Source: an uncultured Clostridia bacterium (lineage in GTDB: Bacteria > Bacillota > Clostridia > Christensenellales > QALW01). From it: 64,000 nucleotides of DNA. Both the position numbers and the translations under genes were made by a program. Below are positions 5,264 to 6,358 of this stretch, piece after piece. The stretch's first letter is position 1; each line of letters begins with the position of its first letter. The notes under the pieces were generated by a model. The model was not told where the DNA came from. It saw only the letters and a list, made by a program, of their open reading frames with translations, and did not search any database. The stretch is from positions 3,620 through 67,619 of the forward strand of contig CAKRZX010000011.1 of NCBI GenBank assembly GCA_934434555.1, given 5' to 3'.

Positions 5264-6358
5264 ATGGGAACATGGGGAGTTAAACTGTATGAAAATGATA
5301 CTGCATTAGAAGTTAAAGAGCGATTCGATGATTTGCGGAAAGGGAAAAACGTTCGTCAGATTACCGATGCATTAATTGATGAGTATTCGGAAGAGTTGAA
5401 TGACGAATATGATGCACCAAATTTTTGGTTCGCATTGGCAGATATGCAGTGGAATTTAGGACAACTACTGCCGGACGTTATGCATAAGAGAACCGACGCC
5501 TGACGCCGAAAACGGTTCTTTTTGCCGATATTCTGTTTCGTCCTCCTTGAAATACGCCCGGTATTCCTGCGTCGTCCTCAACAAATCTCGACAAAAATAA
5601 TCCGTTTTCGGTGCGAGCAGTTTTAACGGAACAGATTTTTGTCGGGACAAGAAAGACGGTGAAGGTAATATCGGGCATATTTCCAAACCGTCTGCCGCAG
5701 TATCCGGCGAAAATATGTCCGTTAAAACCGTTAGGTGTTCGGCTCTCTTATGCATAAAGAACAGGCACTTGTATGGCTTGACAGAGGCGGAGATTTGCCG
5801 GTATGGAGAGAGGAAAATCCAAAACTTGCGGCAAAAAGAGAAAAGATATTGTTCGAATTACAAAGGAAGTTAAATTCTCCGCAACCGCCCGAAAAAAAGA
5901 TTCCGCAGTACCGCCTTTATAAGTGCGAATGGAGAATCGGAGATATTTTTGCGTATCAATTTAACAGTGAATATGCCAAAGACAATGGCTTTTATCATAA
6001 GTATATTTACTTTGTAAAGGTGGACGAGAAAGTGTGGTATCCGGGACATATTGTACCTGTCGTGTACGTTTACAAAAAAGTTGATGATGCAATGTCAGAC
6101 ATAGATTCATTGAAAAATATCGGCTTTATACCGCAATTTTATGAACCGACAGCATATAAAAACTATCCCGAAATGAAAGTGCAGTATTTGTTGACATTAC
6201 TTAATACATCGCCGCGGGTAATACCGAAAAATCAACTGACGTATCTCGGAAACACGGGCGATGTAAAACGCATTGACGGTGAAAATCAGAATTCGTATGA
6301 TGTAAATTGGAAACGCTTTGAGAAATATATGATTGATAATTTCAAAGCATGGCTTTAA
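5264..6358 (+). pseudogene. DUF4259-like immunity-type protein, split by a 274-bp TIR element
   Basis: Two same-frame ORFs, 5264..5503 (MGTWGVKLYENDTALEV.. , DUF4259-style N-terminus) and 5735..6358. Removing 5481-5756 (element plus one TA) gives continuous ..WNLGQLLPDVKEQALVWLDRGGDL... Confidence 0.7.
5481..5754 (+). mobile_element. MITE-like non-autonomous element, copy 1 (TIRs, TA target duplication)
   Basis: Left end TGCATAAGAGAACCGACGCC; reverse complement of right end TGCATAAGAGAGCCGAACACC. Flanking TA at 5479-5480 and 5755-5756. No credible internal ORF. Its internal blocks are shared with 17663-17928. Confidence 0.65.

Follow-up and report, generated by a model that had tools for sequence, protein, structure and literature searches.

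A TA-flanked inverted-repeat element of 274 bp splits a gene downstream of an RHS/YD-repeat gene in an uncultured Clostridia bacterium

The stretch of DNA analysed here, 64,000 nucleotides from an uncultured Clostridia bacterium (the window), contains a gene that is split by a MITE. That the intervening 274 bp are a non-coding, dispersed, TA-duplicating inverted-repeat element is practically beyond doubt. As the best overall explanation, to which we assign a probability of about 85%, this MITE split the host gene at a TA dinucleotide after mobilization in trans by an IS630/Tc1-mariner mechanism. The locus is composed of the following features.

5264..5503, plus strand: 5′ fragment of the split host gene, with 72 native codons, 7 element codons (MHKRTDA) and the stop codon TGA at 5501-5503
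5479..5480, no strand: left TA target duplicate, corresponding to the single TA of the empty site (GACGT-TA-AAG)
5481..5754, plus strand: family-1 MITE, 274 bp, non-coding, predicted to fold as a long imperfect hairpin; 13 full-length copies aligned over positions 1-274
5481..5500, plus strand: left terminal inverted repeat TGCATAAGAGAACCGACGCC, from repeat analysis and copy alignment
5546..5567, plus strand: interior block CTTGAAATACGCCCGGTATTCC, the best conserved part in the comparison of copies and families, common to a sister family
5735..5754, minus strand: right terminal inverted repeat, reverse complement TGCATAAGAGAGCCGAACAC, from repeat analysis and copy alignment
5755..5756, no strand: right TA target duplicate, from the window sequence and the empty-site comparison
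5757..6358, plus strand: 3′ fragment of the split host gene, with candidate restart codons inside the element (GTG 5735 or ATG 5750)

The open reading frames 5264-5503 and 5735-6358 lie in the same frame, and deletion of 276 bp affords an uninterrupted frame of 272 amino acids containing ..LGQLLPDVKEQALVWLD.., as the original prediction had proposed. The insertion point is the TA within codons GTT-AAA (V72-K73) of this gene, where the window reads CCGGACGT-TA-[TGCATAAGAGAACCGACGCC ... GGTGTTCGGCTCTCTTATGCA]-TA-AAGAACAG (longer form of the right flank: AAGAACAGG). The terminal inverted repeats of the element are approximately 20 bp long, start with TGCATAAGAGARCCGA, have arms of 19 nt with 95% complementarity and remain near-perfect to the very tips. 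A degenerate pattern derived from these repeats occurs at only two places in the 64 kb, which are the two ends of the element; shuffled sequences are expected to give 0.01 matches, and none of 100 shuffles contained two or more. The sequence TTATGCATAA at 5478-5487 and 5748-5757 is a palindrome and forms a direct and an inverted repeat at once. Since this palindrome also permits an in-frame deletion of 270 bp (..PDVMHKEQ..), the window sequence by itself fixes neither the boundary nor the size of the duplication. The boundary was settled by empty sites, by orthologues without the MH insert and by other copies that end at positions 1 and 274.

Using the reconstructed 272-residue protein as query we found 403 relatives. 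The best of these (P0001) is 98% identical and exactly 272 residues long. All 15 aligned orthologues, with identities of 50-98%, continue through the junction (..LLP.VKEQA.. / ..P.V(K/R)..) without an MH insert. P0001 is encoded on three contigs, L001, L002 and L003, from two Hadza gut metagenome assemblies and one Logan assembly, where the empty sites read CCGGACGTTAAAGAACAGG, GACGTTAAAGAACAG and ATTTAGGACAACTACTGCCGGACGTTAAAGAACAGGCA. The sequences that flank these sites are 97% identical to positions 5244-5480 and 5755-6982 of the window. Comparison of GACGTTAAAG in L001-L003 with GACGTTA[274 bp]TAAAG in the window reveals that the filled site has 276 bp more than the empty one, namely the 274 bp and one extra TA. 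These data bear out the original prediction that a single gene had been split precisely by a TA-flanked element, and they place the element at 5481-5754.

The insertion allele was found on 12 contigs from several samples, including one Hadza sample, and the empty allele in three other samples. From these comparisons we conclude that the insertion is derived, as none of the orthologues has the element, and polymorphic, as related strains from the same kinds of sample have kept the intact gene. An empty site was recovered at this one locus only; it is clean and ancestral, and no excision alleles were seen. A truncated orthologue, P0041, was considered as a further case of disruption and rejected, as its truncation is not due to a MITE.

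To find further copies we used the translation of the minus strand as query, so that copies mis-called as proteins would be caught; this query was chosen because the element has a stop-free minus-strand frame. The search returned 14 mis-called "proteins" whose contigs yielded full-length copies, and a specific 22-nt end pattern led to four more loci in the metagenome collection. In total, family 1 comprises 13 full-length copies of 256-275 bp from gut metagenomes, which are 87-96% identical. All 13 span element positions 1 to 274 with TA immediately outside, and they differ in length by internal indels (1, 5, 7, 10, 11 or 13 nt) that are not consistently multiples of three. Their neighbourhoods are unrelated: copies are intergenic beside amidohydrolase, WYL, Maf, DUF2325 and ABC-transporter genes, and one lies inside a MatE gene. 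The element thus proved neither to be native sequence nor to lack both copies and an empty site, the two outcomes that the original prediction had named as speaking against it.

The 64-kb window contains no second family-1 copy. Several contigs end inside a copy of family 1 or of its sister family, as is expected of a dispersed repeat. The host contigs encode SpoIIP and a spore germination protease, which marks the hosts as spore-forming Firmicutes. In BLASTN searches, plasmids and phages had no match to the element, and a literature search with the end sequence returned unrelated primer matches only. The copy on contig L115 (7535-7798) sits between two MatE-family open reading frames (7265-7558 and 7662-8603), and removal of the element with one TA leaves the two MatE parts 1 nt out of frame. 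Either this locus carries an extra lesion, or the two frames are not simply the halves of one split gene.

A weak internal match to the family-1 element led us to a second element in the window.

17663..17928, plus strand: family-2 sister MITE, 266 bp, with inverted-repeat ends GGGTTGCGGCACCTATCC.. and TA at 17661-17662 and 17929-17930

The end of this element beside its TA reads TA followed by GGGTTRCGRYACC. The copy is intergenic, with a Lactamase_B-type gene on one side and PCC and GDPD genes on the other. Three contigs break inside the element at this locus, and every contig recovered for it is filled, with no empty site among them. A second family-2 copy was found on contigs L115/L116. 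When the two family-2 copies are counted together with the 13 family-1 copies, TA abuts 29 of 30 ends, compared to a background TA frequency of 6.1%. The target context across copies is [T/A]TA[A/C/G], and the left flank is always [T/A]TA.

Between the two families, the interiors (approximately 220 bp) are 66% identical (shuffled sequences: mean 49%, maximum 53%) and have in common a nearly invariant block of 22 nt, CTTGAAATACNCCCGGTATTCC. In family 1 this interior block (5546-5567) has a partner on the opposite arm near 5664-5683 (repeat I5). In contrast, the termini (22-23 bp) are 42-52% identical, no better than shuffled sequences, and are unrelated. Shared interiors with swapped termini are the only feature of these elements that is mildly unusual. 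One could imagine that selection has kept the interior for a function of its own, for instance as a binding site for a protein or as a hairpin in RNA or DNA that serves mobilization or benefits the host, and that this module was re-armed with different transposase-recognition ends, but we regard this idea as rather improbable. Alternatively, the interior may simply have been inherited from two related parent insertion sequences. At two loci, L114 (10023) and L124 (2861), a family-1 right end abuts a solo family-2-like end, TA|GGGTTACGRTACATATAC, with the TA in common. This arrangement suggests that family 1 used the TA at the end of an earlier element, which has since decayed, as its target.

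We then considered what the element might encode. The original prediction had stated that it contains no credible open reading frame. A frame of 96 codons on the minus strand (5755..5465) does span the whole element, and a stop-free minus-strand frame crosses the element in 9 of 11 copies. The 96-residue translation has no Pfam match, and among copies the same DNA is translated in two different frames (..RDSLRTTQEYRAYFKEDE.. and ..PRFVEDDAGIPGVFQGGRN..). A fully open frame also occurs in about 10% of dinucleotide shuffles. When 1.84 billion representative proteins were searched exhaustively with phmmer, the translation had 12 matches, none of them a transposase. Eleven derive from the element itself, being either pieces called on its copies or fusions with genes beside it, and the twelfth is weak (E = 5e-05, 40% identity over 40 residues of a 1161-residue protein). 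Six of the matches were new relative to an earlier search, and three of these have a Pfam match (MatE, YlmH and DUF6738). Because it has no family match, its frame is not conserved and open frames are common in shuffles, we rejected the minus-strand frame as a gene, and to this extent the original statement holds. At 256-275 bp, with neither a transposase nor any other gene, the copies have the small, non-coding format of MITEs. At least 25 "proteins" in public catalogues, P0121-P0139 among them, are translations of the element, some of them fused to DUF2325, MatE or YlmH-like genes; all of these readings of the minus strand (5480-5755) are annotation artefacts.

As to RNA, Rfam gave no match within the element at E ≤ 1 and only a meaningless snoRNA match outside of it. 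The two strands are predicted to fold into long rods (−110 and −112 kcal/mol, z = −7.9 and −8.4). These strong folds follow from the element being an imperfect palindrome, whose profile matches its own reverse strand. RNAalifold across both families gave an unfavourable covariation term (+2.26), so that a conserved RNA structure is unsupported. We found no promoter-like site inside the element, and the one terminator-like hairpin (minus strand, 5509-5493) is within chance expectation. Elsewhere in the window, a tRNA-Tyr (GTA) gene at 54244-54328 on the minus strand is the sole Rfam/ARAGORN match.

How might such an element move? Insertion at TA with duplication of this TA is the signature of IS630/Tc1-mariner transposition, as shown for ISY100 (PMC2170065), and the same reasoning has linked bacterial MITEs, RUP for example, to IS630-Spn1 (PMC2229807). 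In our two families TA flanks 29 of 30 ends, and the one empty site shows the 2-bp duplication. By analogy, a transposase of the IS630 family supplied in trans would bind the terminal inverted repeats of about 20 bp and cut the element out. Insertion by a staggered cut (2-bp stagger) at a new TA would follow in this cut-and-paste scheme, and repair would duplicate the TA. In the present case the element landed in the TA of V72-K73, and the host protein is truncated after 72 native residues by the TGA that the element provides. As judged from the TA duplication and the inverted repeats, the assignment to IS630 is probable and not exclusive, since other DDE families can make 2-bp duplications.

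The IS630/Tc1-mariner origin of the original prediction is thus probable, as judged from the TA duplication and the inverted repeats, and less firm than was stated there; the full-length IS630-family element with matching ends that it called for was found in none of the metagenome, viral, plasmid/phage or protein searches. In the metagenome scan all matches were MITE-sized copies, and none was an autonomous element that combines these ends with a transposase gene. In viral sequences, neither of two end patterns of family 1 nor the interior block had a match. The family-2 end matched twice, at one and the same position within a coding gene of a phage with high G+C, and these are chance matches. 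Scanning a genome collection of 596 Gb with the 16-mer TGCATAAGAGANCCGA, a pattern so short that it is expected by chance, returned 109 loci, and none of them showed similarity to the element, an inverted partner or a transposase context. An unrelated locus, L108 (about 4257-4600), contains a GC-rich unit of approximately 120 bp (AGAGAGCCGAGGGGNCACCC..CGAACCCTGCRCAGGGGCTGACCGCCCCTATG..) in tandem.

Other DDE families can give 2-bp duplications, including the IS5 subgroups ISL2 and IS427, and IS30. Hence, the MITE could have been mobilized by a non-IS630 DDE transposase of this kind (2-3-bp duplications), an alternative that we consider unlikely. No scan returned an IS630-type partner, and the target [T/A]TA[A/C/G] is not the CTAG that IS630 itself prefers. 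On the other hand, a partner from those other families was not found either, and a duplication of exactly TA, as at 29 of 30 ends, is the mark of IS630/Tc1-mariner transposition (PMC2170065); duplications made by the other families vary between 2 and 4 bp. Much less probable is a single-strand, hairpin-dependent process of the IS200/IS605 or REP/RAYT type, by which the element would have inserted 3′ of a TTA-like motif without any duplication, and the right TA would belong to the element. An insertion of 276 bp without duplication does formally fit the empty site, the left flank is invariably [T/A]TA, and the whole element folds as a rod-like hairpin (z = −7.9 and −8.4). However, IS200/IS605 elements have asymmetric ends and no terminal inverted repeats. 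Our element has inverted repeats that are near-perfect to the tips, and TA flanks that are symmetrical in both families even though the termini are unrelated. The combination of no terminal inverted repeats, no duplication and asymmetric subterminal hairpins that marks IS200/IS605 elements and REPINs is not what we observed, and TnpA or RAYT genes are absent nearby in the inspected contigs.

Equally improbable is that the 274 bp have a function as an insert, be it as a small minus-strand gene or as an RNA with a defined structure or self-splicing activity. The stop-free frame in 9 of 11 copies, the strong predicted fold and the interior block conserved between two families could be read in this way, but the frame lacks a family match, differs between copies and is open in 10% of shuffles. 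Moreover, Rfam and covariation lend no support to an RNA, and the element carries a stop codon in the frame of the host gene. That the 274 bp are native, and 5264-5503 and 5735-6358 are two separate genes, we regard as hardly conceivable. Gene callers do annotate two products at this locus, but intact 272-residue orthologues (98% identity) lack exactly these 276 bp, and the same 274 bp recur at 12 other loci.

Comparison with known systems suggests an ordinary kind of bacterial MITE of an apparently undescribed family. Like our element, RUP from pneumococcus is a non-coding inverted-repeat element of a Firmicute that inserts at TA, occurs in many dispersed copies and has a transcript that folds with strong base pairing (PMC2229807). 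RUP is 107 bp long, its inverted repeats measure 9 bp, and a known IS630 member has matching ends, whereas our element measures 256-275 bp with repeats of about 20 bp, and no matching insertion sequence was found. The Correia/NEMIS elements of Neisseria also have inverted repeats, a TA duplication, size variants due to internal indels and insertions in or near genes, and they too were defined by comparing filled with empty sites (PMC2229807). They differ in being 107-155 bp long, residing in Proteobacteria and carrying an IHF site and promoter motifs, whereas our element has no promoter-like site and no sequence similarity to them. ISY100/IS630 elements duplicate a TA target as well, and their short inverted repeats are transposase-binding sites (PMC2170065), but they are autonomous, about 1 kb long and encode a DDE transposase, whereas our element encodes nothing. 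Rickettsia palindromic elements (RPE) and other in-frame MITEs are likewise palindromic mini-elements within coding sequences, and our element with its duplication amounts to 276 bp or 92 codons. Upon translation an RPE becomes a segment of its host protein, but our element truncates the host protein by an in-frame TGA after seven codons. As far as sequence comparison can tell, the element is longer than RUP and Correia and has no similarity to anything else in the searched collections, where no parent was found.

Annotations of such elements are rare in uncultured Firmicutes of the gut; to these, this work adds a MITE family for which the ends, the target, an empty site and a sister family are defined. 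It leaves existing knowledge of transposition unchanged. On the practical side, the element causes spurious gene calls, contig breaks and split-gene annotations, and the polymorphic insertion could be used as a strain marker in Hadza and other gut samples. The locus is also an example of transposon-driven gene decay in an RHS toxin cassette array, which is headed by the following gene.

1..702, plus strand: 3′ end of an RHS/YD-repeat protein gene, with RHS_repeat and TEN_YD-shell matches on the upstream product in L001, L140 and L141

A weak HNH_2 match was also obtained for the RHS/YD protein region. The split gene lies downstream of this gene in an array of many small open reading frames on the same strand. 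The array (1-9000 and 14000-16000) has a G+C content of 36-39%, compared to 44-48% in the rest of the window. The original prediction had described the host as a DUF4259-type immunity gene. Its match to DUF4259 covers only residues 2-49 and, with 21.7 bits, falls below the Pfam cut-off of 22.8; similar sub-threshold matches occur in 10 of 16 members of the host-gene family. Searches with the host gene gave no match in NCBIfam and only chance-level matches among PDB sequences, the best being a designed protein (E = 0.008). What stands of this description is the position downstream of the RHS/YD gene, a context in which a role as an immunity gene or orphan cassette is plausible. The truncated product of 79 residues is called identically on 12 contigs. 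For the 3′ fragment, the right end of the element supplies the in-frame ATG 5750 with AGGTG upstream, and gene callers start a predicted product of 202 residues at this position (L140, 6487-7095).

Two further observations concern the array itself. Compared to the related contig L001, its gene order is mosaic: blocks of 81-99% identity are arranged differently. It also contains a direct repeat of about 125-165 bp in three copies (1090-1252, 4918-5063 and 7003-7169), the later two being 91% and 64% identical to the first, and this repeat is found at the starts of RHS gene fragments in L001 as well. One frame of the repeat opens with a "..FTNAD"-like remnant and continues into stop codons. Most likely these repeats mark places where orphan RHS toxin cassettes are joined, or sites of recombination.
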